A stretch of 64,000 bases of DNA from Myxococcota bacterium (GTDB lineage: Bacteria; Myxococcota_A; Polyangia; Polyangiales; JANWZI01): the NCBI GenBank assembly GCA_025054695.1, contig JANWZI010000006.1, positions 996 through 64,995 on the forward strand. Direction: 5' to 3'. Below are positions 1-47,061 of the stretch, in pieces (positions within the stretch are counted from its first letter, which is position 1; every line of letters starts with the position of its first letter). Below the pieces are notes generated by a model. It was not told the origin of the DNA. It saw only the letters and a program-made list of their open reading frames with translations, and made no database searches. A program made the translations under genes and the position numbers.

Positions 1-230
1 ACCGTGGCGATTCGCGAAACGACGTCGAGCACCGAAACCTGCGAGCGGTCGAACGGATCGAAGGCCCCTCCCTCGACCGGCGCGGCGTCGAGCCGGATTT
101 CGACGAGAACTGGGGTCGCGGCACTGTCGTCGGGGCGATCCCACGGCGCGGGCTCCGCTCCCGCACAGGCGCTCGCCGCGAACAGCATCCCCACCCACGG
201 CGCGCAGTTGGTCAGCGCTCGCCGGCTCAC
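1..230 (-). CDS. putative lipoprotein, 5' end only (gene runs off the window start)
   Basis: Not in the ORF track. Reverse-strand reading from GTG 230..228 gives MSRRALTNCAPWVGMLFAASAC/AGAEPAPWDRPDD, a lipobox signal peptide. The GTG overlaps the TGA (229..227) of the upstream gene as GTGA. Confidence 0.45.
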   Translation of the reverse strand, partial: MSRRALTNCAPWVGMLFAASACAGAEPAPWDRPDDSAATPVLVEIRLDAAPVEGGAFDPFDRSQVSVLDVVSRIAT

Positions 231-2692: not shown

Positions 2693-2813
2693 GGTCGCGA
2701 CGGCGACTAGCATATTCGGGGCCGCACACCACGGGAACCACCGGCCACGGGACGTCGTCGAGCTCCGATGGCGTCTGCTGCCCGCCGAGGCGACGCCGTG
2801 CTAGCGTCGGAGC

Positions 2814-3689: not shown

Positions 3690-3750
3690 GCCCGCGCCGG
3701 GGGGCCGCACGCTTGCGCCGTCGGAGCGGCGTGATGACACTGAGTGCGAC

Positions 3751-4398
3751 ATGTCTGCCGTCCAGCCCGTCACCGACGCCACCTTCGAGCGCGAGGTCTT
3801 GCGCAGCGAGTTGCCGGTCCTGGTGGACTTCTACGCCGACTGGTGTCAGCCGTGCCGTGCGCTCGCACCCGTGGTCGCCGAGGTGGCGCGCGAGCTGTCC
3901 GGACGTCTCAAGGTCGTCAAGGTCGACACAGATCGCAACCCTCGTGTCGCGGCGGCGTTCGGCATCCAATCCATCCCCACGCTCGTCGTGATGTCGGGGG
4001 GTCAGGTCGTGGCCCATCACGTCGGCGCGCTAGACCGCAAGGGCCTGCTGCGGCTCGTCGAGGCGGCGCTGCCGCGCAACGACGCCGAGGTCAAGCCGTC
4101 CGAGCTCGCCGAACTCATCCGCCAGCGCCGCGCGGTGCCGGTGGACGTGCGCGACGCCGCAAGCTACCGGCGGCATCGCATTCCGACCGCGCTGCACATT
4201 CCCGCCGCGGACGTGGAGACGCGCATCTCGGAGCTGCGCTCGCTCGACGGTCGGATCCGGGTGCTCTACGGCCGCAGCACCGACGAAGCGCGCGAACTGG
4301 CCGAACGGCTCGCCTCGCGTGGGGTGCGCGTCGGCTATCTCGCCGGTGGGCTATTGCACTGGGAAGCCGACGGCCTGCCCGTCGAACGTCCCGCCTGA
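3751..4398 (+). CDS. thioredoxin fused to a rhodanese-homology domain
   Basis: Inner ATG of ORF 3571..4398. The thioredoxin fold carries WCQPC (not WCGPC). The C-terminal rhodanese-like domain ([21 protein letters not shown]...LYGRSTDEA) has Gly where the catalytic Cys is expected. The stop TGA 4396-4398 lies in the arm of repeat E1. Confidence 0.85.
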
Positions 4399-4565
4399 CG
4401 GCACTGCGCGGCTGCGTCGATGACAGCTGCGGCGAGGGCTTCGGAGAGGGGCGCGCATTCAGGCTCGGGCCCGGACTGCCACGCGGAGTCGGAGTCGGAC
4501 TCCACCTCGGTTCCGGACTCGCAGTACGCCTCGGTGGAACCGACCGCCGTGACCGGCGATGCGAC
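4393..4565. repeat. hexamer-tract inverted-repeat intergenic element, copy E1
   Basis: Left arm GCCTGACGGCACTGCGCGGCTGCGTCGATGA contains the TGA of the Trx-rhodanese gene. The tract is of the GGAGTC/GGACTC type (about 4465-4520). Module CTCGCAGTACGCCTCGG, right arm ...CCGTGACCGGCGATGCGAC. Coordinates are +/-10 nt. Confidence 0.7.
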
Positions 4566-4577
4566 GCCGGGCTCGCA

Positions 4578-4689
4578 CGCTCAGCGCCGATCAGGTTGGT
4601 TGAGGGTACGAACCGATGTGCCGAGCCCGAGCTCGAGTCCGCGTCCGAGCCCGAGTCGCGATCAACCAACCTGACCGCCGCCGTCAGAC
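4578..4689. repeat. hexamer-tract inverted-repeat intergenic element, copy E2 (tandem to E1)
   Basis: A perfect 13-bp inverted repeat, TCAGGTTGGTTGA (4591-4603) and TCAACCAACCTGA (4662-4674), encloses the tract CCGAGCCCGAGCTCGAGTCCGCGTCCGAGCCCGAGTCG. The right arm is CTGACCGCCGCCGTCAGAC. Confidence 0.85.
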
Positions 4690-4802
4690 TCCCGGTCGGC
4701 CATCGAATCCGAAAGGGCCTCGCCCCCGAAGGCCGGCGCGCCCGCGGGGCGGCGCCGTGGATTGGGGGCACGGTGGGCTTGTCCCCGACGGCGCGCGGCT
4801 CC

Positions 4803-6896
<2,094 letters not shown>

Positions 6897-7030
6897 GGCC
6901 TTCGCTGTCAGCCAGGGGCTCGTACCCAGCATTCCTGCTCAGACTCCGACCGCGCCTCGATGGATCTCGCTCGGCGCTCCGCGGGCGCCGTCGGCACCCT
7001 CGGGTTGTCAGTTTTGTGTACACTCGCCGC

Positions 7031-7804
7031 GTGTGCCGGCTGCTCGTGCCCTTGGTCGTCGCGCACGTCGCTGCTGCGGTCGCGCCGCGTGCGCTTGCGC
7101 AGAACGAGCGGTCGCGTCCATCGGGATCGGAGACGCCCGCTGACGGGCTGCCTGCCGTGTTTTCGCGACGACCGCTCACCCTTCCGACGTCGCAGTGGCG
7201 GATCGACCTGGTCGTGCGTTTGACCTCTAGCCGCGTGGAGCAACCCGTTCGCGAGCTCGGGATGGATCTCGCGTCGGGCTTCGGGGTGGGTCTGTTCGAC
7301 GGCCTCGAGCTGGGGACGTGGCTCCTTCATTTCCAGATTTCGCCCGGATTCGAGGGCAAGCCGGTGCAGCCCTACGTGCTCGGCCGGCTTTCGCGCGGGG
7401 ACGTCGAGCCAGGTCTCGGATTGCTCGTGCGGCTGGGGCAGAGGCCAGGGCTCGTGTTGCTCGCGCCGGTTCTCGTCCATCTCGGTCCGCGTGTCCGGCT
7501 CGATACGGGCGCCAGTGCGGGCGTGCTGCCCGAAGAGCCCACCGCATATTCGATGCGGTTTCCCGTTCAACTGGCCGTGCACCCGGCCGGGCGGGCTTTC
7601 GTTGGGGGCGGGGGTTACCTCGAGCTCGTCGGTGGCAACGACGAGCCTGCTGATGCCTACGTCGGGTTCGAGCTCTTCGCGGGCACGACGGCGGGCAGGG
7701 GGCCGAACGCCGGCACCGACCTGCGGGTGAGCTTCCACGTCCCGAACGTCGTCGAGGGCTACAAGCTCTGGGTGCTCGCGTTCGGCATCGCGTTCCACCC
7801 CTGA
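7031..7804 (+). CDS. hypothetical secreted protein, possibly an outer-membrane beta-barrel
   Basis: In-frame GTG within ORF 6140..7804 gives the signal peptide VCRLLVPLVVAHVAAAVAPRALA/QNE. GC3-rich codon usage, alternating Gly/aromatic beta-strand-like segments, and a C-terminal ...LAFGIAFHP. Confidence 0.55.
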   Translation: MCRLLVPLVVAHVAAAVAPRALAQNERSRPSGSETPADGLPAVFSRRPLTLPTSQWRIDLVVRLTSSRVEQPVRELGMDLASGFGVGLFDGLELGTWLLHFQISPGFEGKPVQPYVLGRLSRGDVEPGLGLLVRLGQRPGLVLLAPVLVHLGPRVRLDTGASAGVLPEEPTAYSMRFPVQLAVHPAGRAFVGGGGYLELVGGNDEPADAYVGFELFAGTTAGRGPNAGTDLRVSFHVPNVVEGYKLWVLAFGIAFHP

Positions 7805-7939
7805 CGGCCGCGCTTCGATGTTTTCGAGCGCGGTTGCGGCCTCGCGCGCGGGCTCCGTTGCGGACGTGCACTCGAAGGCCCCCCGTGGCCGCAACCCACC
7901 CGCGTCGAGCTCGTCGTCGGATTCCGGGACGCCGTCGTC

Positions 7940-8197
7940 GTCGGACGCACGGTGGCCATCACATGGGTGGACGTAACCGAGGGCTGTTGCGAGTCCGAGT
8001 CCGAGACCGAGTCCAGGACCGAGTCGGAGTCCGAGTCCGAGACTGAGTCTGAGTCGGAGCCCGAGTCCGAGTCCAAGACCGATCCCGAGTGCGAGACCGA
8101 GCTCGAGATAGAGCCCAGGTCCGAGACACTGCCCGAGTCCGGAGATCAAGCCCGAGCTCGAACCGCGGTCCGCTCACCTGGCCGCCGCTGTCAGCGG
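7940..8197. repeat. hexamer-tract inverted-repeat intergenic element, copy E3
   Basis: Left arm GTCGGACGCACGGTGGCCATCACATGGGTGGA, module CGTAACCGAGGGCTGTTGCGAG (7972-7993), 25 in-phase GAGNCS units (7991-8140), right arm GAACCGCGGTCCGCTCACCTGGCCGCCGCTGTCAGC containing the cyclophilin stop. Confidence 0.9.
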
Positions 8198-9168
8198 CTT
8201 CTCGGCTCGTCGCCGCGTCGGCGGCGCTCAGGCCCCTGCTCGGTGGGTCCAGGACTCGCGCCGCGTGGGCGGTCGAACGTCACACCGGGCTGCTCGCGAG
8301 GTGGTGTCGGCCGCGCGGCCGCGGCGCCGCCGGGGACGCGGCGAATGAGCAGCCGCGTGATCGGAACGGGTGTCAGCGGACGGTGATCGGGCCGACCCGT
8401 CTGCGGGACGCGGGCGATGATCGAGACGGTTTCGGTGGGGACGCAGTGGCCGAAAATGGTGGAGCCGCCGTCGAGCTGGGGTGCCGGTCCGTCGGTGATG
8501 AAGAACTGGGCGCCGTATACCCCCGGTCCCTCGTTCGCCATGCACAGCAGCCCGGCACGGTCGTGGTGGCGCAAGGTTTCGTGGATCTCGTCGGGTAACT
8601 GGTAACCGACGCGTCCCGTGCCATCGCCGAGCAAATCGCCACCCTGGATGAGGAAGCCCGGAATGACGCGATGGAACGTGAGGTCGCGATAGTACGGTCG
8701 CCGCACCCACGCCCCGGCCCGCGGATCCCAGAAAGCTCTGAGGCCTCGCGCCAGGCCAATGAAGTTGGCCACCGTCCGCGGCGCGCGATCCGCGTACAGA
8801 TCGCAAAAGAGCACACCGAGGTCCGTCGCGATTTCCGCGACGAGCTGCCCATCGAGAGGAAGGCCGGCCACCGCTTCCTCGAGCGTGAACTGGCCGCCAT
8901 GCGGATCGGGCTCGGTCGGCTCGAGGACGAGTCGTTCGCGCTCACGCGCGGCGCGCTGCTCGCCCGGCCGCGACGGCTGCGGCCCCGCGGTGGGCTCATC
9001 GGCGAAGATCACCTCCGTGCCATCTTCGAGCCGCGCCCGCTGCCCCGATGACCTTGCGCCCTGGGCACGTGGCTCGGGCGCCGTCGAGGGGCCGCCGGAG
9101 CAGTGCACGGTCTCGCAGCCCAACAGCAGTGCGAGCGAGAGCGCAGCGCTCGGTCGCACGATTCGCAT
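8191..9168 (-). CDS. cyclophilin-type peptidyl-prolyl cis-trans isomerase, lipoprotein
   Basis: ORF 8191..9237 trimmed to the Met giving MRIVRPSAALSLALLLGC (lipobox). Cyclophilin motifs are FHRVIPGFLIQGGD and GLLCMANEGPGVYGAQFFIT. The stop (TCA 8191-8193 on +) lies in the E3 arm. Confidence 0.85.
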   Translation of the reverse strand: MRIVRPSAALSLALLLGCETVHCSGGPSTAPEPRAQGARSSGQRARLEDGTEVIFADEPTAGPQPSRPGEQRAARERERLVLEPTEPDPHGGQFTLEEAVAGLPLDGQLVAEIATDLGVLFCDLYADRAPRTVANFIGLARGLRAFWDPRAGAWVRRPYYRDLTFHRVIPGFLIQGGDLLGDGTGRVGYQLPDEIHETLRHHDRAGLLCMANEGPGVYGAQFFITDGPAPQLDGGSTIFGHCVPTETVSIIARVPQTGRPDHRPLTPVPITRLLIRRVPGGAAAARPTPPREQPGVTFDRPRGASPGPTEQGPERRRRGDEPRSR

Positions 9169-9246
9169 CGACTCCGGCCACCCCACCATCCGGCCGCGTG
9201 ATCCGCAATCGACGGTCGCGACCCCGTTCGCGTCCACGCCAACCGC

Positions 9247-10242
9247 TCAGCGCTGTCCCGCGTAGCGCGGATCGCCCGGCACTAGCGCGAGGGCGTAGCG
9301 AATCTCGATGAACCGATTCGATACGGTGCCCGCGGTCACCCCGTAGCGCCTTGCGACCGAGGCCTGGGTGACGCCGCGAACCCCGTGAAGGACCGCGATC
9401 GCGTATTCGATCGCCGCGGCGTAGCTCTCCGGCCGGCACGCCGGTCGCCGCGCGTGGTGCCGGAAGTCTCGCCACAGCGCGAGGGCGGCGTGGATCTGAC
9501 TCGCCGAGAACCCAGCGGCGCCCATGCGCGCCTCGAGCGCGTCAACCACTGCATCGGGTGGGGACGCCGCGCGTCCGCTCGCGTGCGGCGCGGCGGACCG
9601 GTGCCCGAGTCCAGAGGTCCGCGGGGAGCGGGGTGGGCCGGACCGGTCCGCACCCTGTTCGATCCAAGCGAGCAGCTCCCGGTGGTCGCGATTGCGCGGC
9701 GCCGCGCGCACGGCCTCGTCGGCGAGGGTGCGGGCGCGGTCCAGTCGCCCCAGGCGCGCCAGGCAATGTGCGAGTGACGCGGCGATCTCGTGCTCGAGCG
9801 GCTCGATGCGATGGGCAATCTCGAGGTGACCGACCGCTTCGTCGGGACGACCGAGCGCGACGTCGAGAAGATGACCCAGGTTGTGGTGGTACCAGGGATT
9901 GTGCGGCGACTCCTGCAGTGCGCGTCGATAGCTGGCGACCGCAGCTTGGAAATTGCCGAGCAGCGCGTGACACAAACCCAGCAACGCGTGCGCCACGTCG
10001 CCACCGGTGCGCGCCGCGACGAGCCGTCGGAGGTGCAATGCCGCGCGCCACGGATGCTCCTCGATCAGCAATTCCGCCAGGTGGCGATGCGCGAACGTCC
10101 ACGCCTCGCTGCCTTCCGGCGCCACGTGGGAAAGCCGCTCGAGCAACGATTCGACCTCGCGTCGCGGACGGTTGCGACGCAGCGCCTGCTCGGCGAGACG
10201 CAGCAGGCGCGCGTGCGCGGTGCCCTGCGTGCGTCGCGTCAT
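9247..10242 (-). CDS. TPR-repeat protein with a C-terminal HTH-like domain
   Basis: ORF track. TPR-like repeats (ALLGLCHALLGNFQAAVASYRRALQESPHNPWYHHNLGHLL). The C-terminus GVTQASVARRYGVTAGTVSNRFIEI resembles a helix-turn-helix. Confidence 0.7.
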   Translation of the reverse strand: MTRRTQGTAHARLLRLAEQALRRNRPRREVESLLERLSHVAPEGSEAWTFAHRHLAELLIEEHPWRAALHLRRLVAARTGGDVAHALLGLCHALLGNFQAAVASYRRALQESPHNPWYHHNLGHLLDVALGRPDEAVGHLEIAHRIEPLEHEIAASLAHCLARLGRLDRARTLADEAVRAAPRNRDHRELLAWIEQGADRSGPPRSPRTSGLGHRSAAPHASGRAASPPDAVVDALEARMGAAGFSASQIHAALALWRDFRHHARRPACRPESYAAAIEYAIAVLHGVRGVTQASVARRYGVTAGTVSNRFIEIRYALALVPGDPRYAGQR

Positions 10243-10275
10243 GCAGCAAGCGTATAACCCGCGTCCGCGGCCCTT

Positions 10276-11031
10276 TCAAGAACCACGCGCGGTTCGCTCG
10301 CAGTGCACGAGCAAAAAGCCGCCGAACCAGCGCAGCGGTCCCCGCGCAGCGCGCCGCTCGGCGCGAGCGAGCCACGGCGCGACGAGGGCGAACCGGTGCA
10401 GCGCCGCGGCCGGCGTCAGCACCCGGATCCCCTCGACGCGTCGGATGCGCAGCCCCGGCGCGAGCCAGCGCGCGATGCGCGTCGGCGGATCCCAGCGTGT
10501 CGGCACGTCCTGTTCGGTGTGCTGGTGCGAGATCGGACGAGGCCCCGCGACGCGTCGAGCGAGCCACCGCAGGCTCCAGGGGTTGTAGACATCGAACAGC
10601 ACGGCTCCGCCGTCGCGACAGACGCGGGCCATCTGGGCCAGCGCGACGCCCACGTCGGGCACGTGGGCGAGAACCTTGAACGCGTAGACCACGTCGAAGC
10701 TGGCATCGTCGAAGGGCAGGGCCGTGGCGCTCGCGACGCGGACGTCGAGCCCGCGACGCAGGGCGTGCGCGAGCATGCCCGGCGACAGATCGACGCCCCG
10801 CGCGGTTCGCGCCACCTCGGCCGCGCGGCGCAGAAGCAGCCCCGTGCCGCATCCGACCTCGAGCACGTCGCGCCCCGCCACCAGCGGCCGCAGGGCCTCC
10901 CACTGCATCTGGTCGACGAGCGCGTGGTAGCCGTGATGCCTGCACCGTTCATAGCTGGCCGCGAACGCGTCGTAGTAGCGTCGTGCGCGCTCCTCCTGGG
11001 CGTCCTCCTGGGCGTCGGCCTCGGTCACCAC
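10276..11031 (-). CDS. class I SAM-dependent methyltransferase
   Basis: ORF track. Motif I VLEVGCGTGLL, then LPFDDASFDVVYAFKVLAHVPD. Confidence 0.85.
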   Translation of the reverse strand: MVTEADAQEDAQEERARRYYDAFAASYERCRHHGYHALVDQMQWEALRPLVAGRDVLEVGCGTGLLLRRAAEVARTARGVDLSPGMLAHALRRGLDVRVASATALPFDDASFDVVYAFKVLAHVPDVGVALAQMARVCRDGGAVLFDVYNPWSLRWLARRVAGPRPISHQHTEQDVPTRWDPPTRIARWLAPGLRIRRVEGIRVLTPAAALHRFALVAPWLARAERRAARGPLRWFGGFLLVHCERTARGS

Positions 11032-12137
11032 AGCGCGTCGTACACCGCCTCGTAGGCCCGTGCCATCGCGGACCGGTCGTGACGTTCGCGCACGGTCCGC
11101 AGCGCCCTCTCGCCCAGGTCCGAGCGGAGTTGCCCGTCGTCGAGCAGGCGAGCGAGGGCGTGGGCGAGGGCATCGGCGTCCGGCGGCACCGCCACGGCGG
11201 CCCCGTCCTCGGCCAGCTCCGCCGCGCTCGTCCCTTCACAGACGATCACGGGCCGGCCGAGCGCCATCGCCTCGAGCAGCACGAGCGGCAGATCCAGCTT
11301 GCCGCACAGCGTTTCGGTAGGCAGCGCGACCACGTCCGCGCCCGCGAGCCACTGCAGGATCCGCGCGGACGTGCCCGCCCATCGCACGCGCGGCTCGGTC
11401 CCCAAGCGCCGGGCCCGTTCCGCCAGCCGCTCGTACGCCCGTGCGCTCCGCTTGCTCTTCGTTCGGCACGCCATGACGAGCCACGCCTCACGCGACAGCC
11501 GCCCATGGGCTTCGAGCACGCGGAGCGCAGCCGCCTCGTGCTCGAGGTCGCCGGGATAGACGACCACGGGGGCCTGGGCGGGCAACCCGAGGGCGCGGCG
11601 GATTCGCAATCGGGCCGCCGCGGCCGGCGGGGTCAGTGGCGGCGCGCAGGGTGCGATGCGTACGACGCGCTCCCGCTCGAGGCCGGCGTCGAGCAGCAGG
11701 TGCTCGGTTTTCCGCGACAGCACCACGATGCGGTCAGTGAAGCAGAGCGATCGCAGCGAGGAGCCGACCAGCGCTGGGGCACTGCAGACGGTCTGTACCG
11801 TGCGAACGGCTCGGAGGCGGGCGACGAGGCGCGCGGCGCCGCTCGTTCTCGGATTGGGCGTGAAGAAGAAGTGCCACAGGGGCGCTCTCGCCCCGAACGC
11901 GAGCCAGCGCAGCGCGTACAGCGCTTCGTGCGCTCCGAAGCCCGGGCCGCCCGAGGGGGACCGGCGGGGGTAGACGGGCTCGAGTGCGATCCCGCCGATG
12001 TGGCGGGCACCGCCCTGCCGACCCATCCCGCGCGCGGGGTATCGTTCGAGGCCGAGGAGCAGATCCCGCGCGAGGTTCTTGCTGCCGTCGGTCCAGGGCG
12101 GCTCGAGCGGCTTGCTGACGACGAAGACGCTCCGCAC
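11025..12137 (-). CDS. glycosyltransferase, GT-B fold (group 1 / GT4-like)
   Basis: ORF track. The C-terminal half carries GKLDLPLVLLEAMALGRPVIVCEGTSAAELAEDG, typical of group 1 glycosyltransferases. It overlaps the downstream methyltransferase by 7 nt. Confidence 0.8.
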   Translation of the reverse strand: MRSVFVVSKPLEPPWTDGSKNLARDLLLGLERYPARGMGRQGGARHIGGIALEPVYPRRSPSGGPGFGAHEALYALRWLAFGARAPLWHFFFTPNPRTSGAARLVARLRAVRTVQTVCSAPALVGSSLRSLCFTDRIVVLSRKTEHLLLDAGLERERVVRIAPCAPPLTPPAAAARLRIRRALGLPAQAPVVVYPGDLEHEAAALRVLEAHGRLSREAWLVMACRTKSKRSARAYERLAERARRLGTEPRVRWAGTSARILQWLAGADVVALPTETLCGKLDLPLVLLEAMALGRPVIVCEGTSAAELAEDGAAVAVPPDADALAHALARLLDDGQLRSDLGERALRTVRERHDRSAMARAYEAVYDALW

Positions 12138-12260
12138 GCGCTGCGGAGCTAGCCGCAGGCTGCCGCACGCGCCAGCGGACGGCGCAGCCTCCGACCCCCG
12201 CGGCGCGGTGCCTCGCTCGGGTCGGCGGACGGCGAAGCGAACCGGGCCCGCTCATGCGCT

Positions 12261-12788
12261 ATGCTCGATTCCATGAGCACCGAGCCGCCTCCGCCCGCCG
12301 ACGCGCCGCCGGCGGCAGAGGGCCCGTCGAGTGCGCCCGACGGCGCCGACGAGGACGTCTCGGAGCGGGAGCAACGACGACGGGGCATCGAGCGGGCGCT
12401 CCGGGATCTGGTGCGCAAGGCGCTCGAACGCGGGCTCGAGGTGGGCCTCGACCGGCTCGGCAAGACGAACAGCGCGATCGGCGAGATCCTCGGCAGCGGC
12501 CAGAACCTCTCTCGCGAGGTGGTCGGGTTCGTCTTCGCGCAGCTCGACGAGACCAAGAATGCGCTCGTGCGGGTCGTCGCGCGCGAGGTGCGCGAGTTCC
12601 TCGAAGCGACCGACATCGCGGCCGAGGTCCGCAAGGCCTTGACGAGTCTCTCGTTCGAGATCCGCACGGAGATCCGCTTCGTTCCCAACGAGGCCGGCGC
12701 GCTGCGCCCCGAGATCCGCTCGCGACCTACCGTGGCCGTGCGTCGCCGTGACCGAGAGTCGGACGGCGAAACGACGGGGGACGGATAA
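12261..12788 (+). CDS. hypothetical protein
   Basis: ORF track. Strong GC3 codon bias, TAA stop, no motif recognised. An alternative Met lies at 12273. Confidence 0.65.
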   Translation: MLDSMSTEPPPPADAPPAAEGPSSAPDGADEDVSEREQRRRGIERALRDLVRKALERGLEVGLDRLGKTNSAIGEILGSGQNLSREVVGFVFAQLDETKNALVRVVAREVREFLEATDIAAEVRKALTSLSFEIRTEIRFVPNEAGALRPEIRSRPTVAVRRRDRESDGETTGDG

Positions 12789-12837
12789 CGACGGTCGCGT
12801 GGGTCGAGGCAATACGGCGACCCGGATTCTCGCGCTC

Positions 12838-12946
12838 CGCCTCGCGGCGCCGGCCAGGTTGATGGATTGCGCCTTCTCCTCGGACTCGGGCCAGGACTCG
12901 CAACACTCCTCGGCTACGTCAAGCAACGTGACCGCCGCTGTCAGAC
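12838..12946. repeat. hexamer-tract inverted-repeat intergenic element, copy E4 (short tract)
   Basis: Left arm ...GCGGCGCCGGCCAGGTTGATGGA, a short tract CTCGGACTCGGGCCAGGACTCG, module CTCGCAACACTCCTCGGCTACG (12897-12918), right arm TCAAGCAACGTGACCGCCGCTGTCAGAC (12919-12946). Confidence 0.88.
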
Positions 12947-13021
12947 CCGGAATCCGTTTCGGGCGCCGTCGCCAATGCGGCTTCGATCCGCCAGAAGCCG
13001 ATGTCGGCTCGTGCGTCGTGC

Positions 13022-13513
13022 TCAGCGCTCCGAGTCGCCAGCGCACGGAGCCTCCGAAACGCCGGACGCCATCGCGTGCGCCTGCTCCAGATCGGAGGGC
13101 AACGGGAGTCGTGCGCGCTCGAGCGCGCGGCGCAGCGCGACGAGCGAGGAGGCCAGACACGGTGCGACGATCTCCCACGCACCCTGCATCTCCGGCTCTT
13201 CGGACCAGCGCGCAATCGCGATGTTGGCGTCGGCGAGCCACTGCTCGACGCGTGCGAGGGCGGTCATGACCTCGCGGGCCTGTTCGGGTGGACGACGTCG
13301 GGTCTCGGCGCGGTCGATTTCGGCGACCACGCGCCCGGCCAGATCGACCGTCGATCGAGCGTGGCGCAGCGCAGGGTCGGCGCCGCCGCATGCCGGCTGC
13401 GAGGCGAGGGCGAGCAGCGTGAGCAGGCCGCCGGGTGGGCGGCGGGCGCGGCGTGGCGCGCCACGCGCGGAAACCGGCGTACCCGTCGGCGCGCGCCGCA
13501 GAACCCGACGCAC
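13022..13513 (-). CDS. hypothetical lipoprotein
   Basis: ORF track. Lipobox [15 protein letters not shown] and GC3-rich codons. It is divergent from folD with a 28-nt spacer. Confidence 0.55.
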
Positions 13514-13541
13514 CGCCGCGGCATGCTACAAGCGGCCGTCG

Positions 13542-14411
13542 ATGCCGGCCAGATGGATCGACGGTCGTGAGGTGGCGGCGTGCGTGCGGCGTGCCGTGGG
13601 TGCCGCGGCGGCCAGGTTTTCCGAGCGGACGGGCCGCGCGCCGGGCCTGGAGGTGGTGCTCGTCGGCGACGACCCGGCGTCGCATCTGTACGTGCGCAAC
13701 AAGGAGCGCGCCGCGGTCGAGTGCGGCATCCGCGGGCACGTGCACCGGCTTGCCGCGACGAGCACGCAGGACGAGGTGCGGACGTTGGTCGCACGACTGG
13801 GCGAGCGCGACGACGTCGACGGCATCCTCGTGCAGCTTCCGCTGCCGTCGGGAATCGACGCGCGTGCGGTGCTCGATGCCATCGATCCGGAGCGCGACGT
13901 CGACGGTCTTCACCCGGTCAACGCGGGCCGGCTCGCATCCGGTCGTCCGGGGCTGCGGCCTTGTACGCCGGCCGGCTGCATGCGGCTGCTCGACGCCGTC
14001 GGCTTCGACGTTCGCGGTCGGCACGCGCTGGTCGTCGGACGCAGCGCGCTGGTGGGCAAGCCCGTCGCGCTCATGCTGCTCGAACGCGACGCCACGGTCA
14101 CGATCGCCCACAGCCGCAGTACGGACCTCGAATCGCTCTGCAAGCGGGCCGACGTTCTCGTCGTCGCGGTGGGGCGTCCTGGCCTCGTCCGAGGCTCCTG
14201 GATCCGCCCCGGGGCGGTCGTCCTCGACGTCGGCACGACGCGCGGAGCCGACGGGAAGCTGCGCGGGGACGTCGATCCGTCGGCCGCCGAGCACGCTGCC
14301 TGGATGACCCCTGTTCCCGGGGGTGTCGGTCCGATGACCGTGGCCATGCTGCTCGCCAACACCATCGAGGCGGCCTACCGGCGCGCGGGGCTCGAACCAC
14401 CGACCTGCTGA
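13542..14411 (+). CDS. folD: bifunctional methylenetetrahydrofolate dehydrogenase / methenyl-THF cyclohydrolase
   Basis: Inner ATG of ORF 12867..14411. Motifs are [45 protein letters not shown] and [14 protein letters not shown]. The stop TGA 14409-14411 lies in the E5 arm. Confidence 0.93.
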
Positions 14412-14505
14412 CGCCGACGCTCGCGCGGCTGGGGCGAGGAGCGGAACGCGGACTCGGGCTCGGGCTCGCAACACCCCGCCGCCACGTCAAGCAACGTGAC
14501 CGCCG

Positions 14506-14512
<7 letters not shown>
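14406..14512. repeat. hexamer-tract inverted-repeat intergenic element, copy E5 (short tract)
   Basis: It fills the whole folD/aminotransferase convergent gap. The left arm TGCTGACGCCGACGCTCGCGCGGCTGGGG holds the folD TGA. Tract GGACTCGGGCTCGGG, module CTCGCAACACCCCGCCGCCACG, right arm TCAAGCAACGTGACCGCCGCTATCC holding the aminotransferase stop. 24 of 24 nt are identical to E4 (14484-14507 vs 12916-12939). Confidence 0.88.
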
Positions 14513-15654
<1,142 letters not shown>

Positions 15655-15746
15655 CGCCCGCGGACGGTAGTCGCGCGGGGCCACCACGACCAGTGGCATC
15701 GCGCGCGGCACGGGACCGTGACGCCTGCCCTGGGAGCGATCGCGCC

Positions 15747-17315
15747 GTGAGCGAAGTCCGCGTCGGCCTGGTCGGCTGCGGTCGCTGGGGCATGCGGCAC
15801 GCGCGGGTGCTCTCGGAGCTCGGGGTTCTCGGCGCCGTCTGCGACGTCGAGCCGGAACGCGCGGCCGCGGCGGCCGCGCTCGCTGAGGTGCCGGTCGCGG
15901 CGGATCTGGAGTCGCTTCTCGCGCGCTGCGACATCCACGCCGTCGTCGTGGCCACGCCGGCCGCGACGCATGCGGCCGTCGCGCGCCGCGTCCTGGAAGC
16001 GGACAAGGATGTGCTCGTCGAGAAGCCGCTCGCGCTCGACCTGGACGAAGCACGGGCGCTTGTCCGACTCGCGGAGGCACGCGGGCGCGTGCTCACCGTC
16101 GGTCATCTGCTCCTGCACCACCCCGCCGTGGTCGAGCTGCGGCGCCGGCTCCGGGAGGGACAGCTCGGGCGAGTGCGGATGGCTCGGGCGACGCGCGCGA
16201 ACTGGGGTCGCGTTCGGTCCGAGGAGGACGTTCTGTACAGCCTGGCCCCTCACGACGTCGCGGTGCTGTGCGACCTGCTCGGCGAGATGCCGTCCCAGGT
16301 CAGCGCGCGTCTGCTGCGCGTGCTCGGCACGAACCGCGCCGATGCTGCAGTCGTCGGCCTCGAGTTCGCGTCGGGCAGTCGTGCGGAGCTCTTCGTTTCG
16401 TGGCTCGAGCCGGTCAAGGAACACCGCCTACGGATGGTCGGGGAGATGGCGTCGGCCGTTTTTGACGACGGCCGGCCTTGGTCCGAGAAGCTGGTCATCC
16501 TTCGCCACGAGTTGCGGCGCGACGAGGTGGGGGCATGGGAGGCGGTGGGGGGCACGGAGCACGTCGTCGCACTCGAGCCGATGGAGCCGCTGCGGGCGCA
16601 GGCCGAGGACTTCGTCGCCGCGGTGCGTACGAGGAAGGCCCCCCGCGTCTCGGCGCAATCGGCGCTCGACGTGCTCGCCGTGCTCGAGGCCGCGACGCGC
16701 TCGGCGGCGCAGGGAGGGGTGCCTGTCACCCCGTGCGCCCCCGGTGCCGCGACGTTCGTCCATCCGACCGCGGTCGTCGATCCGGGTGCGCAGGTCGGCG
16801 CGGGGACGCGCATCTGGCATTTCTGTCACGTCTACGGAAGCGCGCGCATCGGGGCGCGCTGCGTCCTGGGCCAGAACGTGATGGTCGGGCCTCGGGTGCG
16901 AATCGGCGACGGAGTCAAGATCCAGAACAATGTCTCGGTCTACGAGGGCGTCGAGCTCGAGGACGAGGTGTTCTGCGGTCCTTCGGCAGTGTTCACCAAC
17001 GTCGCCACACCGCGCGCGGCCATCGAGCGCAAGCACGCGTTCCGCAGGACCCTCGTTCGACGGGGCGCGACGATCGGGGCGAACGCGACCATCGTCTGCG
17101 GCGTGACCATCGGACGGTGGGCGTTTGTGGCCGCTGGCGCCGTGGTCACGCACGACGTCCCGGACCACGGGCTCGTCATCGGTATCCCGGCGCGTTTGGC
17201 CGGGTGGCGCTGTCGCTGCGGAGAGAAGATCGAGCTCGCCGGGGAGCGCGGGCGGTGCGTCGCGTGCGGAAGCACGTATCGCCGTGGCGCTGAGGGGCTC
17301 AATGCGGACCCGTGA
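15747..17315 (+). CDS. fusion protein: Gfo/Idh/MocA oxidoreductase (WbpB-like) plus hexapeptide-repeat acetyltransferase (WbpD-like)
   Basis: ORF 15693..17315. GTG 15747 places the Rossmann motif [12 protein letters not shown] near the N-terminus; ATG 15693 is the alternative. EKPLAL motif. The C-terminal half is a left-handed beta-helix ([46 protein letters not shown]...[14 protein letters not shown]). Confidence 0.82.
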
Positions 17316-17520
17316 GAGCGCCGATGGGGTGGATGCCTCGCCCCGTCGTGTGGTGACCCGAGTCGGAGCCGGGGATCGAGCCCGGGGCGGAGACGGATCC
17401 CGGGTCCGAGTCCGAGGCGAGTCGGAGTTCGAGTCCAAGTCCGTGTCCGAGCCCGAGCCGGAGCCCGAGGCCGAGTCCGAGACCGCGCTGGAGGGTGGTT
17501 CGACCGGACCGCACAGCTCA
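17311..17520. repeat. hexamer-tract inverted-repeat intergenic element, copy E6
   Basis: Convergent gap. The left end CGTGAGAGCGCCGATGGGGTGGATGCC contains the TGA at 17313-17315. GAGNCS-type tract at about 17357-17485. The right arm GGTTCGACCGGACCGCACAGCTCAGC holds the hydrolase stop (17518-17520). Confidence 0.75.
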
Positions 17521-18414
17521 GCGGACGGCGACTCCGATGCGGCGATGGGCGAGGGCCGGTAGGGCGCGACGGACGCGTTCGACGGCGGTCAGGTCCACCC
17601 TGGCGATCGCGTAACCGTCGCCATCGGCGTGCTCGGCGACGACCGTGCCCCACGGATCGCAGACGAGCGCGTGGCCGTAGCTGACGCGATCACCGAAGTG
17701 CCGGCCGCCCTGCGCCGCGGCCAGGACCCAGCACTGGCTCTCAATCGCGCGCGCGCGCAGCAGCACGTGCCAGTGATCCTTGCCGGTGGTCAAGGTGAAC
17801 GCGGCGGGAACCGCGAGCAGCCGCGCGCCGCGGTCGACGAGCGCTCGATACAGCTCCGGGAACCGTACGTCGTAACAGATGGACAGGCCCAAGGGTCCCG
17901 CGCACGTCTCGGTCACGATCGCCTGATCGGGCGGACCGGCTTCTATCGTGTCGCTCTCCGCGATTCGCGTCCCGTCCGGAAGATCGACGTCGAACAGGTG
18001 GATCTTGCGGTAGACGGCGCGCACCGTGCCGGTCGGGTCGACGTGGACGCACGCGTTGCGTACGCGATCGGGTCGTTCGCCGCGTTCCCAGAAGCCGCCG
18101 AGCACGACATCGACGCCCGACTCGCGGGCGAGTCGGCGACAGCGATCGAGAATGGGGCCTCCCTCGGGCAGCGGTTCGGCGACCTGAAGCTTGAGCCGTT
18201 CGGGGCCGAGCAGGGCGAAGCATTCCGGCAGCAGGACGAGCCGCGCTCCGTCGGACGCCGCCTCGGACACGAGGCGCTCGGCGACGCGCAGATTCCGCTC
18301 GAGGTCGGGTCCGGAGCACATCTGCACGACCGCGACCCGGACCGGAGGCGCGGGCTTCGGAATCGCCTCGCTCGCCGTGGGCGGCTGGCCGTTGCGCGGC
18401 GTCGTCGCGGTCAA
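17518..18414 (-). CDS. carbon-nitrogen hydrolase (nitrilase superfamily)
   Basis: ORF 17518..18792 trimmed. The E-K-C triad contexts are LLPECF, YRKIHLF and [11 protein letters not shown]. The start is uncertain; I chose TTG 18414..18412, which overlaps the rodA stop (TTGA). The stop lies at the E6 arm. Confidence 0.75.
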
Positions 18415-19514
18415 GTCGAAAACCTCCGGATCGAGACGTTGGTGAGCAAGCCGATGCCGACGAGGGTCGCGAACACGTTCGAACCCCCGTACGAGAACAG
18501 CGGCAGCGTCACGCCGACCACCGGCAGCAGTCCCATGACCATGCCGAGATTGATGACGGTGTGCCAGAAAAGGAACGCGCAGACGCCCACTGCGAGGACG
18601 GCGCCGAAGCGGTCGCGCGCCAGGCTCGCGACGTGCAGCCCCCGGAGCACCACGAACGCGTAGAGCGCGAGGAGCAGCAGCACGCCGAGCAGTCCCTGTT
18701 CCTCCGCCCAGACGGCGAACGGGAAATCGGTGTACTGGTCGGGAAGAAAGTGCAGCTGGTTCTGGGTCCCCTGCATGAAGCCCTTGCCCCACAATCCGCC
18801 CGAACCGATCGCGATGAGGGACTGGCGCGCATGCCAGCCGCTGTCGAGGACGTCCGTGGTCGGATCGAAGAACGCGCGCAGACGGTCACGCTGATAGTCG
18901 GCGAGCACGAAGTGCCAGCCCAGCGGCGCGGCGCCCACCGCGAGCGCGAGCAGCGTGACGAGGGACCTGCGTCGAAGCGGAACCAAAAGCATGACGGTCG
19001 CGAAGATGAGCGCGAGCAGAACGGCGGTGCCGAGGTCCGGCTGAAGCAGAATGAGCACCATCGGCAGGGCGAGCACCAGCCCCGGCGCGAGCAGATCGCG
19101 CAGCGAGCGCTCCTCGCTCCTCGGATCCCGATGCAGCACCTTGGCGAGCGCGACGAGCACCGCGAGCTTGACGATCTCGCTCGGCTGCAACGTGAAGCCG
19201 GCGACCTCGATCCAACGGGACGAGCCCCGAATCGTCTTGCCCACGAGCAACACGAGGCCCAGCAGCACCGTCGCGCCTCCGTACAGCCACCAGGCCAGTC
19301 GTTCGTAGTGCCGATAGTCGATGGCCGCCACGAGGACCGCGGTGCCGGCACCGAGCGTAAGCCAGTAAATCTGCGTGACGTAGATCTCGGCCAATCGCGC
19401 CGATTCGCTGCTCGATGCGCTGTACAGATTGATGACGCCGATGACGGCGAGCGCCGCGACCGCGATGAACAGCGGCCAGTCGAACGCCTCACGCGCTCGA
19501 CGTCCGAGCCGCAT
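18411..19514 (-). CDS. rodA: SEDS-family peptidoglycan polymerase RodA
   Basis: Inner Met (MRLGRRAREAFDWPLFIAV) of ORF 18411..20093. Multi-TM protein with the C-terminal motif LPLFSYGGSN. Its ATG overlaps the mrdA TGA (ATGA at 19512-19516). Confidence 0.9.
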   Translation of the reverse strand: MRLGRRAREAFDWPLFIAVAALAVIGVINLYSASSSESARLAEIYVTQIYWLTLGAGTAVLVAAIDYRHYERLAWWLYGGATVLLGLVLLVGKTIRGSSRWIEVAGFTLQPSEIVKLAVLVALAKVLHRDPRSEERSLRDLLAPGLVLALPMVLILLQPDLGTAVLLALIFATVMLLVPLRRRSLVTLLALAVGAAPLGWHFVLADYQRDRLRAFFDPTTDVLDSGWHARQSLIAIGSGGLWGKGFMQGTQNQLHFLPDQYTDFPFAVWAEEQGLLGVLLLLALYAFVVLRGLHVASLARDRFGAVLAVGVCAFLFWHTVINLGMVMGLLPVVGVTLPLFSYGGSNVFATLVGIGLLTNVSIRRFST

Positions 19515-21391
19515 CAGCGGCCTCGTCCGGACGCTTCGGCCGCGCCCGTCGTGCCGAGGTACTCTTGAAGGATCTGCATGGCGATGGGCGCCGCGTAGCG
19601 ACCGCCGCCACCGCCGTGCTCGACGAGGACCGCGATCGCGACGTGCGGGTCTCCGGCGGGAGCGAATCCCGCAAACCATGCGTGATCGCGCCGGAAGTAC
19701 CAGGCCCGTTTCAGCTCCTCGGCGCCGGCCAGCCGGCCGCGTACCTCGGCCGTCCCCGTCTTGCCCGCAATCGGCACCCCGTCGGGGATGCGCGCGTCGT
19801 ACGCTGTTCCCTGCGGGTCGTTGACGACCCCGTACAGGCCGTCGACGAGCAGGGCGAGGTGCTCCCGCGGCACCCCGACGCGACGGCGAACGCGTGGCTC
19901 GAAGTGCGCGATCGGCGTCCCGTCCGGCTCGCTGATGCGCTCGACCAGGAGCGGTTGGTAGAGCGTGCCGCCATTGGCGATCGCGGCGTACGCCATGGCC
20001 AGTTGCAGCAGCGTGACGCGGGTGTTGCCCTGACCGATGGCGGTGTTGAGCGCGTAGCCCGTGCGCCAGCGACCGAAGTGGCGCTCGTACCATTCGCGCG
20101 TCGCGAGGAACCCAGACGCTTCCGACGGGAGCCCGATGCCGGTCGGTTCACCGAAGCCGAAGCGCTGCGCCATCAGGTTGAGCGACTGCAGACCGACGAG
20201 CTCGGCGAGGCGGTAGAAGTACACGTTGCACGACCGAACGATCGCCGCGCGGAGATCGACCTCGCCGTGCACCTGCGTGCAGCGCTTGCGCTCGCGGCCG
20301 ATCTCGTGGACGCCGGTGCAAGTTACCCGTGCGCCCGGATCGAAGCCGTCCTGCGCCAGCGCGGCCAGGGCGGCGATGGGCTTGAAGGTCGACCCCGGGA
20401 AGTACGTCTCGAACGTCGTCTTGTCGATGAGCGGCCGAAACGGGTTGTCCAGCAGCGCGGCGTACGCTTCGGGTCGGATGCGTCCGCTCAGCTCGTTCGG
20501 GTCGAACGCCGGCTTGGCGTACAGGGCGCGCACCCGCCCCGTGTGCACCTCGACGACGACGGCGGCGCCAGATGGGTGACCGCGGAAGGCGCGGTCGATC
20601 GCCCGCATCAGGTCCATGTCGATCGTCAGCGTCACATCGCGGCCCGGCACCGGGTCGCGCCGCACGGCGCCCGCGGCAAGTCCCCCGGTGTCGGCAGCCC
20701 GCTGCGGGCGTCCTCGTACGTCCACCAGCAGCCGCTGCTCCCCTCGTCGTCCGCGAAGCAGCGCCTCCCACTCGCGCTCGACGCCGGCGCGGCCGACCCG
20801 ATCGCCCGGGCGATACACGTCGTCAACGTCCCGCTCGAGCTCCGCCGCGCTCACCTCGTTGAGGTAACCGATCGCATGCGCAGCGAGGGTGCCGAACGGG
20901 TAGATGCGCTGCGCACGCGGTACGACGTCGACCCCGGGAAGCGACAGGGAGGCCTGCTCGATGGCCGCCGCGCGATCGCGGTCGACGTCGCGCAGCACGA
21001 CGATCTGATGGGTCCGACGGCGCGGCGGAAGCCGTTCGATCCGCGCCGCGATGTCCCGTCGGGTCGCCTCGTCGAGGTTGGCGACGCTCGCGAGCCGAGG
21101 CAGGTCCTGTTCGAGGTCGAACAGGTACGGCGTGACGAGCACGTCGAAGGCGGGCCGGTTGTCGGCGACGATGCGGCCCACCGTATCGCGTATCAGGCCG
21201 CGGCTCGCCGGAAGCGGGATGCGTCGCGTGACGTTCTCCTGCGCGGCGGCGGCCCACGCTTCGTGCTCGATGCCCTGGAGCTGCACCGCGCGCGCGGCCA
21301 GCACGACGAAGGCGGCGGTCGCTCCGACGGCGAGCTTGCGATAGCGACGGCGCAGATCGCCGACGTCGCGGCGTGTGCCCGACAGCCGCAT
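19514..21391 (-). CDS. mrdA: penicillin-binding protein 2 (elongasome transpeptidase)
   Basis: Inner Met (MRLSGTRRDV) of ORF 19514..21628. The SxxK (GSTFKP), SxN (RSCNVYF) and KTG (GKTGTAE) motifs are present. It lies between mreD and rodA. Confidence 0.9.
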   Translation of the reverse strand: MRLSGTRRDVGDLRRRYRKLAVGATAAFVVLAARAVQLQGIEHEAWAAAAQENVTRRIPLPASRGLIRDTVGRIVADNRPAFDVLVTPYLFDLEQDLPRLASVANLDEATRRDIAARIERLPPRRRTHQIVVLRDVDRDRAAAIEQASLSLPGVDVVPRAQRIYPFGTLAAHAIGYLNEVSAAELERDVDDVYRPGDRVGRAGVEREWEALLRGRRGEQRLLVDVRGRPQRAADTGGLAAGAVRRDPVPGRDVTLTIDMDLMRAIDRAFRGHPSGAAVVVEVHTGRVRALYAKPAFDPNELSGRIRPEAYAALLDNPFRPLIDKTTFETYFPGSTFKPIAALAALAQDGFDPGARVTCTGVHEIGRERKRCTQVHGEVDLRAAIVRSCNVYFYRLAELVGLQSLNLMAQRFGFGEPTGIGLPSEASGFLATREWYERHFGRWRTGYALNTAIGQGNTRVTLLQLAMAYAAIANGGTLYQPLLVERISEPDGTPIAHFEPRVRRRVGVPREHLALLVDGLYGVVNDPQGTAYDARIPDGVPIAGKTGTAEVRGRLAGAEELKRAWYFRRDHAWFAGFAPAGDPHVAIAVLVEHGGGGGRYAAPIAMQILQEYLGTTGAAEASGRGR

Positions 21392-24099: not shown

Positions 24100-24300
24100 G
24101 GGAGCGACGGGTCACGGACATGCTCTCGGGCTTGTGCACGGGCTCCGGCTGCGGCGCCAACGCGGGGTCGACGCGCGACGCAGGCCCGGATTCGGACTCG
24201 GGCTCCGAATCGGCCTCGGACTTCGGCTCGCACGACGCTCCGGCGTCGCCTCGCCGACGCGATCGAGCCGGGCGTGCGCGGACCGATCAGCGGCAGACGG
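24100..24300. repeat. degenerate copy of the same element family, E7
   Basis: Left arm-like GCGACGGGTCACGGACATGCTC, a short tract GGATTCGGACTCGGGCTCCGAATCGGCCTCGGACTTCGG, module-like CTCGCACGACGCTCCGGCG, and a right end at the GH1 stop (GATCAGCGGCAGACGG). Weaker match. Confidence 0.5.
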
Positions 24301-37595: not shown

Positions 37596-37610
37596 CCGCT
37601 CGGCGTATGG

Positions 37611-40015: not shown

Positions 40016-40019
40016 GGAG

Positions 40020-45690: not shown

Positions 45691-45697
45691 CGAGCCG

Positions 45698-46985: not shown

Positions 46986-47061
46986 TGTCCGTGCGGTGAG
47001 CCTCGGGCCGGCAGGCAGCGGTCGTCCCGCATCCGCGTTGCGCGTATCGGGGCCCGGCCTC

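Follow-up and report, generated by a model that had tools for sequence, protein, structure and literature searches.

The genes folD (13596-14411, plus strand) and a DegT-family aminotransferase gene (14506-15711, minus strand; Pfam DegT_DnrJ_EryC1) converge within the 64,000-nucleotide (nt) stretch of a Myxococcota genome analysed here, hereafter called the window, and the gap between them is occupied by a short repeat element, E5 (14406-14512, minus strand). FolD carries the Pfam domains THF_DHG_CYH and THF_DHG_CYH_C, and its TGA stop (14409-14411), located 9 residues past the domain end, lies inside CTGACGCCGA, which has two mismatches to the ten-letter core CTGAC(G/A)GCGG. On the opposite side, the TAG stop of the aminotransferase gene (14506-14508) directly adjoins the arm of the element (GGA TAG CGGCGGTCACGTTG). 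As the first-pass annotation of the window had proposed, the gap is filled from stop to stop: the interval 14412-14505, from the FolD TGA to the DegT TAG, contains the 63-nt head module and three hexamers (CGGACT CGGGCT CGGGCT). E5 begins with the degenerate left end CTGACGCCGACG..., continues through the hexamers, and closes with the head plus arm on the minus strand (14449-14511). The head is matched by the profile described below at 14511-14449 (nhmmer E=2e-15), and E5 is 87% identical over 62 nt to positions 12881-12942 (repeat family D7). E5, the flagged stretch, represents one member of an interspersed repeat family that is non-coding and specific to the lineage.

The full unit of this family, about 105 nt long, consists of an arm, a head and a run of GAGNCC hexamers, and some copies carry an additional inverted arm at the far end. 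The arm reads (C)TGACGGCGGCGGTCAC or (C)TGACGGCGGCGGTCACGTGG and is followed by a head of about 35 nt, ..GA.GTAGCCGAGG..TGTTGCGAG; together they form the conserved module of about 63 nt that precedes many of the arrays. The hexamer weights are G(.92), A(.83), G(.84), N, C(.89) and C(.79), with the fourth position free. The hexamer run would lengthen and shorten by slippage, giving rise to the 100-400-nt elements that we find. Complete mini-elements of about 105 nt, closed by an inverted far-end arm, are represented by E2 (4581-4687), the core of E4 (12838-12944) and the flagged E5 (103-107 nt), while E3 and E16 each combine an old degenerate fragment with a younger copy, and other copies are expanded to 300-400 nt. 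Clear terminal inverted arms are present in E2, the E4 core, E13 and E16.

Tandem hexamer arrays, accompanied by direct-repeat families, occur at about 19 intergenic sites in the window, and four further array sites lie in the 10 kb past its end (same genome, contig L156). The density is about one element per 3.4 kb of the window, and the elements total about 4.1 kb, covering 6.4% of the window and accounting for roughly half of its non-coding DNA. A head profile built from nine heads and searched with nhmmer over 74 kb (the window plus the extra 10 kb) matched 12 full heads and three arms without a head. The arm pattern with up to three mismatches was found six times, as compared to 0.07 expected matches.

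How closely is the family tied to the ends of genes? Genes were called with a self-trained codon model, and most of those flanking an element were checked against Pfam. They are ordinary and complete genes, encoding thioredoxin-rhodanese, cyclophilin, FolD, DegT aminotransferase, CN-hydrolase, glycosyl hydrolase, LolA, AhpC-like, PilZ, EVE, Lon, M10 peptidase, ABC permease and MoaC proteins. All of the stop codons listed in the first-pass annotation proved to be the true first in-frame stops of genes well supported by the codon-model calls and Pfam: 4396-98, 7802-04, 14409-11, 17313-15, 28320-22, 37311-13, 43672-74, 46712-14, 51303-05 and 62316-18 on the plus strand, and 8191-93, 14506-08, 17518-20, 24287-89, 28401-03, 30083-85, 43968-70, 51619-21, 54417-19 and 62426-28 on the minus strand. 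The accompanying claim that the core CTGAC(G/A)GCGG repeatedly contains the stop does not hold literally, as the exact ten letters (CTGACRGCGG) occur five times in the window against 1.2 expected, two of 100 shuffles reach five occurrences, and only the one at 8185-8194 is a stop. The claim stands in a looser form. When up to two mismatches are allowed in the ten letters starting one base before the stop, the core is found at 11 of 24 stops that face an element and at none of the 29 element-free stops in the window, and the shorter motif CTGAC separates element-adjacent from element-free genes in the same proportions (11/24 versus 0/29; Fisher p=3e-5). With three to six mismatches, the core is missing from the stops at 17313, 17518, 24287, 28320, 51303 and 62316. 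The core context is not the usual gene end of the lineage, because only three of 57 genes in three element-free relatives have it at their stops under the same tolerance. The heptamer CTGACGG occurs 22 times in the window, with six occurrences at stop codons and 15 inside coding sequence.

Among the eight profile-supported arms that face a gene end, four abut the stop exactly and one begins 9 nt after a TAA; the remaining three are 74-143 nt off and lie behind an older degenerate fragment that itself begins at the stop or within 7 nt of it. No arm has the stop deeper inside, although the arm contains stops in other frames, and no gene reads into an arm in either of those frames. In the extra 10 kb, a well-conserved head begins exactly on a TGA stop (L156:252). 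Cytosine occupies position -1 in 11 of 12 TGAC stops. The arrays proper begin 14-186 nt from the stop, with the arm occupying the space between. At tandem junctions the element lies against the upstream stop, and 50-190 nt are left before the next start.

The first-pass annotation also held that nine of ten convergent junctions are occupied. Something indeed lies between the stops at nine of the ten; eight of these are clear arrays, and the ninth (28323-28400) is doubtful. The only convergent pair without a gap, an SLT-domain gene and an isocitrate/isopropylmalate dehydrogenase-family gene, overlaps by 17 nt (60691-60707), and its stops read ATGAG and CTGAG. Occupancy is 3/10 for divergent junctions and 7/32 for tandem junctions, the latter representing seven of the 11 tandem junctions with a gap above 100 nt.

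We next consider whether the TGA belongs to the element or to the gene. Outside the ACGG, the flank is CTGA in six of the 12 arms read, CCGA, CCCA, CGCA or GCCA in five, and GATA in one; the left arm of E2 (4582) has CTCA at the CTGA position. The 18-nt arm core, in comparison, shows at most five mismatches, and at most three in the better copies. The evidence points both ways: since the outer four letters vary more than the arm core, CTGA looks like a preferred flank rather than a part of the core, while the arms at 4687, 12944 and 51379, which are not at a stop, still read CTGAC, which speaks for an element-borne TGA.

The individual copies illustrate these relationships. At convergent junctions, E3 (7801-8194, plus strand) starts with a degenerate fragment on the TGA at 7802-04 (CTGACGGCCG), and its core element (7947-8194) runs from a head through about 24 hexamers to a right arm, in which CTGACAGCGG contains the cyclophilin stop at 8191-93. 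E4 (12786-12944, minus strand) has a left arm that begins on the TAA at 12786-88; next comes the mini-element (12838-12944, about 107 nt), whose CTGACAGCGG does not serve the facing gene as its stop, the actual stop being at 13022-24, 78 nt off in the same frame. E6 (17312-17521, plus strand) is a hexamer array between an oxidoreductase-acetyltransferase gene and the CN-hydrolase gene, and its end stops, GTGAG and CTGAG, do not belong to the core. E10 (37310-37614, minus strand) has a well-conserved left arm, CTGAAGGCGGCGGTCACG, which contains the TGA at 37311-13 and is followed by 28 hexamers; on the right, the element ends at the TAG of the AhpC-like gene. Both ends of E13 (43671-43971, plus strand) start with CTGACGG and contain the stops of the PilZ (43672-74) and EVE (43968-70) genes. 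E16 (51302-51622, plus strand) consists of a degenerate fragment that runs from the lon TGA (51303-05) to 51378 and a core element, of which the perfect arm CTGACGGCGGCGGTCACGTG at 51379 is no stop and the right end CTGACGGCTG contains the M10 peptidase stop at 51619-21. E19 (62315-62429, minus strand) fills the gap between MoaC and a 521-residue gene, and its right end, CTGACATCCG, contains the stop at 62426-28. E8 (28319-28404) is a doubtful member: its 78-nt gap contains three hexamer-like units and a GC-rich hairpin (z=-2.7), it has no head or arm profile match, and its ends are three and eight mismatches from the core.

At tandem junctions, the left end of E1 (4395-4566), CTGACGGCAC, contains the thioredoxin-rhodanese TGA, and a head lies on the minus strand at 4558-4506. 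The neighbouring E2 (4581-4687, plus strand) is a complete 107-nt mini-element with true inverted arms, CAGGTTGGTTGA and TCAACCAACCTG; no gene stops at its right arm CTGACGGCGGCGGTCAGG, and the next gene starts at 4773 (annotated start from L160). E7 (24103-24290, minus strand) lies between the glycosyl hydrolase stop (CTGAT) and the mreB start. E9 (29850-30086, minus strand) has about 30 hexamers that extend to within 14 nt of the TGA at 30083-85 (TTGACGCGCG). E11 (40000-40327, minus strand) is the longest array, with about 37 units and a 54-nt higher-order repeat; its head begins 9 nt past a TAA stop, and the arm has CCGAC rather than CTGAC. The left end of E15 (46711-47000, minus strand), CTGACGGCGC, contains the TGA at 46712-14, and E17 (54240-54420, minus strand) is a short array at which the ABC permease stop (CTGACGATGG) is located two residues past the Pfam domain end. 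The three divergent copies are E12 (42040-42168, minus strand), whose head arm CCGACGGCGGCTGTCG lacks the TGA; E14 (45395-45625, plus strand), with an in-frame TAG in the array; and E18 (56660-56900, plus strand), with two heads (56661 and 56772) and an arm, CCCACGGCGGCGGTCACC, again without the TGA.

We considered whether the arrays could be a coding low-complexity repeat, (Glu-Ser/Thr/Pro)n, and rejected this idea. In-frame TAG codons interrupt E10 and E14, E16 contains register shifts, the sixth hexamer position is kept as C (79%) while the fourth is free, and arrays follow stops in both orientations. A 91-residue open reading frame (ORF) wholly within the E11 array (40029-40304, minus strand) nevertheless passes the codon-usage gene model, because GAG-NCC mimics the codon bias of the genome, and such ORFs could be mis-annotated as acidic repeat proteins. 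A further ORF of 391 residues without a Pfam match (45539-46714) has its only possible starts inside or just after the E14 array, in which an in-frame TAG lies at 45521-23; if GTG 45539 is its start, the first 20 residues (VPESELEPAPASEPESGAEP) are array-encoded.

Does the element contribute to the proteins that end at it? The first-pass annotation had raised the possibility that the last codons of many proteins are element-derived, and this is not supported as a general rule. No similarity between copies was found upstream of position -1, where only the C is common, and the last 60 coding nt of element-adjacent genes contain no excess of hexamer-array signal relative to genes lacking an element or to random coding windows (Mann-Whitney p=0.25 and 0.38). 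The Pfam domains are complete and end 2-27 residues before most of the checked stops (53 for cyclophilin and 33 for the glycosyl hydrolase). Moreover, random insertion into genes would put two thirds of the gene ends at the other-frame stops of the arm, and no gene ends there, which leaves element-coded tails unsupported. The tails of FolD, EVE and Lon vary in length in all relatives; those of FolD and EVE are within or near the range of the relatives, which is too variable for a strict test. Four possible exceptions deserve mention. In the gene at 12261-12788, the tail RRRDRESDGETTGDG ranks in the top 4% of coding windows for array likeness and falls within a hypervariable tract; just ahead of 37311-13, the final two codons (GAG GTC) resemble the GGGAGTC outside young arms; the last 11 residues of the DegT protein belong to the 27 residues beyond its Pfam domain end; and in another assembly of the organism, uvrC of contig 29 (673 residues) runs about 37 residues (DADVGSDSDSAAVSVSASDPTRADPSVRRLGVDLSVR) into an array (L001 1-1127). 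This uvrC has no stop at the usual place, and homologues cover only about 89% of the query; its tail is either truly array-encoded or a mis-join artefact, as it probably sits on a mis-join. In the reading favoured below, the stop codon and the whole 3′ flank are common to gene and element while the protein is unaltered.

The location of the elements fits another suggestion of the first-pass annotation, namely that they act as bidirectional terminators or stabilisers of the 3′ untranslated region, although the hairpin that a terminator would need found no support. Relative to dinucleotide shuffles, E5 folds worse on the plus strand (z=+2.1) and equally well on the minus strand (z=+0.1), E19 gives z = +0.5 and -1.75, and the E4 core gives z=+1.0; only E2 forms a real hairpin (z=-4.1). 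The mean z of the 19 elements is about -0.9, as compared to -0.7 in coding controls. A scan of positions 1-20000 for hairpins followed by a T-tract found six, with 4.4 expected by chance, and none at an element. Because most copies fold like shuffles and T-tract terminators are at chance level in the 20 kb scanned, a classical bidirectional hairpin terminator is unsupported, though the unstructured, periodic CCGAG/CUCGG array may have some role. We also rejected a hairpin maintained by covariation, as the arms of the same element do not co-vary and the folding scores are ordinary. In two relatives, an ordinary hairpin follows lon where the window genome has an element.

The window has a G+C content of 72%. 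Its Lon protease is identical to that of the Myxococcota metagenome-assembled genome (MAG) GCA_033577305.1 (NCBI), and, because it is 86% identical to Lon of Sandaracinus amylolyticus, the source organism is an uncultured relative of the Sandaracinaceae. The window and this MAG are about 99.8-99.97% identical over the aligned stretches, with differences at the elements. At the E4 locus, a 95-nt length difference corresponds to the complete 107-nt mini-element, present in the window and absent from MAG contig 3. The mini-element lies inside a 220-nt tract (12722-12943 versus L160 18970-19100) with about 20% divergence, so that the MAG does not provide a clean empty site. This tract spans the last 22 codons of the gene at 12261-12788 together with E4, and the stop of this gene is TAA in one assembly and TAG in the other, at the same position. 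Apart from the tract, the assemblies are identical from 1822 to 14493 (12.7 kb), and the tract looks like an imported allele or a conversion tract. In the E19 array, one GAGTCC unit (62338-62343) differs between the window and the MAG contig, reflecting either microsatellite-type slippage or an assembly difference, and three single-base differences lie in or beside E18 (56634, 56723 and 56726). Six single-base differences from the MAG (1343-1821) also cluster in the middle part of an 828-residue zinc-ribbon/TPR gene (227-2713), a coding part that is of low complexity and rich in GAGNCS hexamers.

The arrays also coincide with the breakpoints of assemblies. MAG contig 3 ends inside the E14 array (window 45597), and in MAG contig 29, 7 kb of unrelated upstream sequence (with uvrC; L001 1-1029) is joined within the E15 array (window 46902), while the segment 45598-46901 of the window is in neither contig. 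Short-read Logan contigs likewise end in arrays.

How widely is the family distributed? Around lon in three Sandaracinaceae relatives (S. amylolyticus and two MAG contigs; 66 kb), we found neither arrays nor arms; synteny around lon is not conserved in these genomes, and they offer no orthologous empty junction for comparison. Among 80 folD loci of GTDB genomes, of which the best match is 62% identical, there was no clear element, with one uninspected array match (L011). A metagenome scan with GCGGCGGTCAC-N(18-30)-TGTTGYGAG returned 72 matches, all due to chance and none with arrays, and no Rfam family matched the whole window at the gathering threshold. The literature that we searched contains no description of the element, mentions the hexamer strings in no relevant context, and describes no repeats in Sandaracinus. 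Two other repeats were encountered during these comparisons. On contig_51087 of the European Nucleotide Archive (ENA), from a relative, the region 3′ of lon (L083 12440-12830) has GGGGACGGTCTACACTTTTCAACTTTCGGCTGGGCCGCGCGCATGCGGATGAAACCCGGGCGG repeated in direct and inverted orientation, with no sequence relationship to the element. In another Myxococcota MAG (L002 9907-9970), a 12-nt tandem repeat, (CCAAGAAGGCCA)n, lies 3′ of folD and probably encodes a lysine-rich KKAT repeat protein.

How, then, did the end of an interspersed repeat come to lie on the stop codons of so many genes? In the reading that we favour, and to which we give an even chance, a mobile or recombining repeat is joined to the host DNA at CTGA, its surviving copies stand at the ends of transcription units, and the protein remains unchanged. 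The family would be a small non-autonomous mobile or recombining element, comparable to miniature inverted-repeat transposable elements (MITEs), repetitive extragenic palindromic sequences (REPs) and BOX elements. New copies would be joined directly at 5′-CTGA-3′, which in practice would be a TGA stop preceded by C. Copies landing inside genes or promoter regions would then be purged by selection, and the remaining ones would be found where transcription units end, chiefly between convergent genes. A preference for joining at 5′-CTGA-3′ is suggested by the arms that abut stops and by an outer flank that varies more than the arm itself. Of the two explanations offered by the first-pass annotation, this favours the one in which the elements target stop-codon contexts or gene 3′ ends, since the C-TGA boundary is far above chance and no gene reads into an arm in another frame. 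We infer transposition as the mode of spread, CTGA as the target, and selection as the force behind the convergent bias. A narrower version, in which mobile DNA integrates specifically at stop codons via C-TGA, entering right at the final base of terminal genes, and reuses or replaces the stop while leaving the protein untouched, seems to us rather unlikely. If it is true, a stop-specific integrant would account for half of the window's non-coding DNA, and perhaps for as large a share genome-wide. To our knowledge, C-TGA stop targeting has not been described for bacterial MITEs, REPs or insertion sequence (IS) elements, and the literature searched shows no such case.

Several observations weigh against joining at CTGA. 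Just outside the CTGAC, GGGAGT or a near match recurs in three or four of the youngest arms, and the conserved unit may therefore extend past the TGA, making the TGA element-borne. The complete copies E13 and E16 read CTGAC inward at both ends, where a one-sided target fails, as one insertion cannot set both of its ends on two pre-existing stops unless these are nearly adjacent. Across the 19 elements, the left arm is no closer to the reverse-complemented right arm of the same element than to those of other elements (permutation p=0.86), so that classic terminal inverted repeats are not general and the two-arm picture of the element, drawn in the first-pass annotation, applies to some copies only; this agrees with the 12 full heads and three isolated arms of the profile search. 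Pfam scans of window genes and the inspected flanks yielded no transposase or target-site duplication, and the 74 kb contain no autonomous copy. The sample is small, comprising 24 gene-facing ends and 15 recognisable arms from one genome, and the ends of degenerate arms are partly defined by the gene stop, which biases the count towards element ends that coincide with stops.

The main rival to CTGA joining is compaction after insertion, in which the arm's own TGA lands 3′ of the gene and slippage between the two 4-nt direct repeats (CTGA...CTGA) deletes the spacer and replaces the stop, again with the protein unchanged. Compaction would explain why arms meet stops exactly and in frame and why C is so frequent at -1, and it fits the relative ages of the arms: the older degenerate ones abut stops, while several young and well-conserved ones are still 9-143 nt away. 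The gene with a TAA stop at 40333, which lacks the TGA microhomology, retains its 9-nt spacer, and the CTGAC of the non-stop arms at 4687, 12944 and 51379 agrees with an element-borne TGA. We nevertheless consider compaction unlikely, as one specific deletion would be needed at each of a dozen loci, arms also abut a TAA (12786-88) and a TAG (14506-08) that have no such microhomology, and the arm varies less than the four letters outside it. Alternatively, the element may be a selected 3′-end module, with bidirectional termination, 3′-end protection or the loading of a factor on CCGAG/CUCGG as candidate roles; the stop would be included because the functional unit must begin where translation ends. 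The occupancy of eight or nine of the ten convergent junctions and of most tandem junctions with a real gap is what such a module would produce, and the five hexamer positions held at 79-92% beside a free fourth position look like constraint on CCGAG. The ordinary hairpin after lon in two relatives, at a place taken by an element here, and the chance level of T-tract terminators in the 20 kb scanned point in the same direction. In Escherichia coli, many REPs lie within a few bases of a stop codon, and Liang, Rudd and Deutscher reportedly observed in 2015 that such REPs affect translation and mRNA stability. A module under selection is, however, hard to reconcile with the lack of general secondary structure (the flagged copy scoring z=+2.1), with arrays in either orientation relative to the upstream gene, with three elements in divergent, promoter-containing gaps, with the absence of the family from all of the relatives examined, and with a fourfold length range between copies and variation between two near-identical assemblies. 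We therefore regard selection for a 3′-end function as quite unlikely.

The two remaining explanations concern the coding side of the boundary and the reality of the link itself. If insertions into the last codons had replaced the native 3′ ends, the C-terminal residues and the stop would be element-encoded, and the array-like RRRDRESDGETTGDG, the GAG GTC before 37311-13, the DegT tail and the uvrC of contig 29 could be cited as examples. This seems improbable, as the last 60 nt of element-adjacent genes have no array excess, nothing is conserved above -1, the domains are complete, the uvrC case lies on a probable mis-join, and no gene ends at the in-arm TAG or second TGA, where random phase predicts two thirds of the ends. 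Finally, CTGACGG could be a common stop context or a chance motif of a 72% G+C genome without any real link to the element; the modest excess of the literal ten-mer, reached by two of the 100 shuffles, and the 15 heptamers within coding sequence are in line with this. The proposal is refuted by the distribution at stops, 11/24 beside elements versus 0/29 in element-free genes and 3/57 in the relatives, together with the six of 22 CTGACGG that are stops, and we attach next to no credence to it.

Returning to the joining of a mobile or recombining repeat at CTGA, what would it mean for the genome? If the link to the stop is a matter of insertion chemistry, a small mobile element would be using a harmless spot, the base after the last codon, in a compact genome, and harmless insertion at gene ends would explain a density of one copy per 3-4 kb. 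Practical consequences also arise. The arrays break and mis-join metagenome assemblies, as both MAG contigs that overlap the window demonstrate, and they can extend ORF calls, as in uvrC. Whole-hexamer variation between near-identical genomes makes them possible strain markers. Furthermore, the 20 kb scanned lack canonical terminators, which makes the family a candidate for work on how transcripts end in uncultured Sandaracinaceae.

Among known systems, bacterial MITEs such as the Correia/NEMIS elements of Neisseria resemble the family in their length of about 100-400 nt, non-coding nature and high density. The inverted terminal arms of E2, the E4 core, E13 and E16, which begin TG...CA, and the presence/absence difference between near-identical genomes at E4, within the divergent tract, are partial likenesses. 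In contrast to MITEs, only some copies have inverted arms, a variable microsatellite takes the place of a fixed interior, and the inspected flanks have no direct repeat; the element ends, CTGAC...GTCAG, are inverted. The BOX elements of Streptococcus pneumoniae are intergenic and dispersed, with the organisation boxA-(boxB)n-boxC and an internal unit of 45 nt. They share a modular plan in which a conserved module at one end is followed by a variable number of internal tandem units and by another module at the other end, whereas the unit here is 6 nt and the sequence and hosts are unrelated.

REPs lie downstream of genes, between unidirectional and convergent ORFs (PMC3733652), and the family resembles REPs, bacterial interspersed mosaic elements (BIMEs) and REP doublets forming hairpins (REPINs) in being short, of high copy number, extragenic and mainly downstream of genes. 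The GTAG (or CGTC) tag of REPs and REPINs has a partial counterpart: the heads at 51379 and 12944 and the E10 arm (37311) contain GTAGCC, and GTAACC occurs at 7949, but the remaining heads have other letters there, and the motif lies within the head, not at the end of a palindrome. Unlike REPs and REPINs, whose 20-40-nt unit is an imperfect palindrome that folds into a hairpin, the arm and head have no internal palindrome and most copies fold no better than shuffles; there are no fixed inverted doublets, and the hexamer array has no REP counterpart. REPs are mobilised by REP-associated tyrosine transposases (RAYTs), and the window genes scanned with Pfam have no Y1 transposase domain, nor was a RAYT gene seen in the 74 kb. 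The GGGAATC and GGGGAYT heptamer arrays of Xanthomonas and Nostoc, preferentially located at most 50 bp from stop codons or overlapping them (PMC4692102), are similar in being dispersed 6-7-nt tandem arrays at about 200 or more intergenic loci, near or overlapping stops and rare between divergent genes. Their units are G-tracts that form quadruplexes and lack a conserved flanking module, whereas GAGNCC / GGNCTC has no G-tract and comes with a conserved arm and head. The enrichment of IS elements between convergent genes has been attributed to selection against insertions upstream of genes (PMC2942039), and for REPs, too, selection on insertions is documented as the source of a convergent bias (PMC3733652). 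The family shows the same orientation bias, although full IS elements carry transposases and no stop-codon link is reported for them. New here are a build that combines arm, head and hexamer microsatellite as modules, the density, and the way in which the element end falls exactly on C-TGA; taking these comparisons together, the element would best be filed as a MITE/REP/BOX-like interspersed repeat, mobile or recombining.

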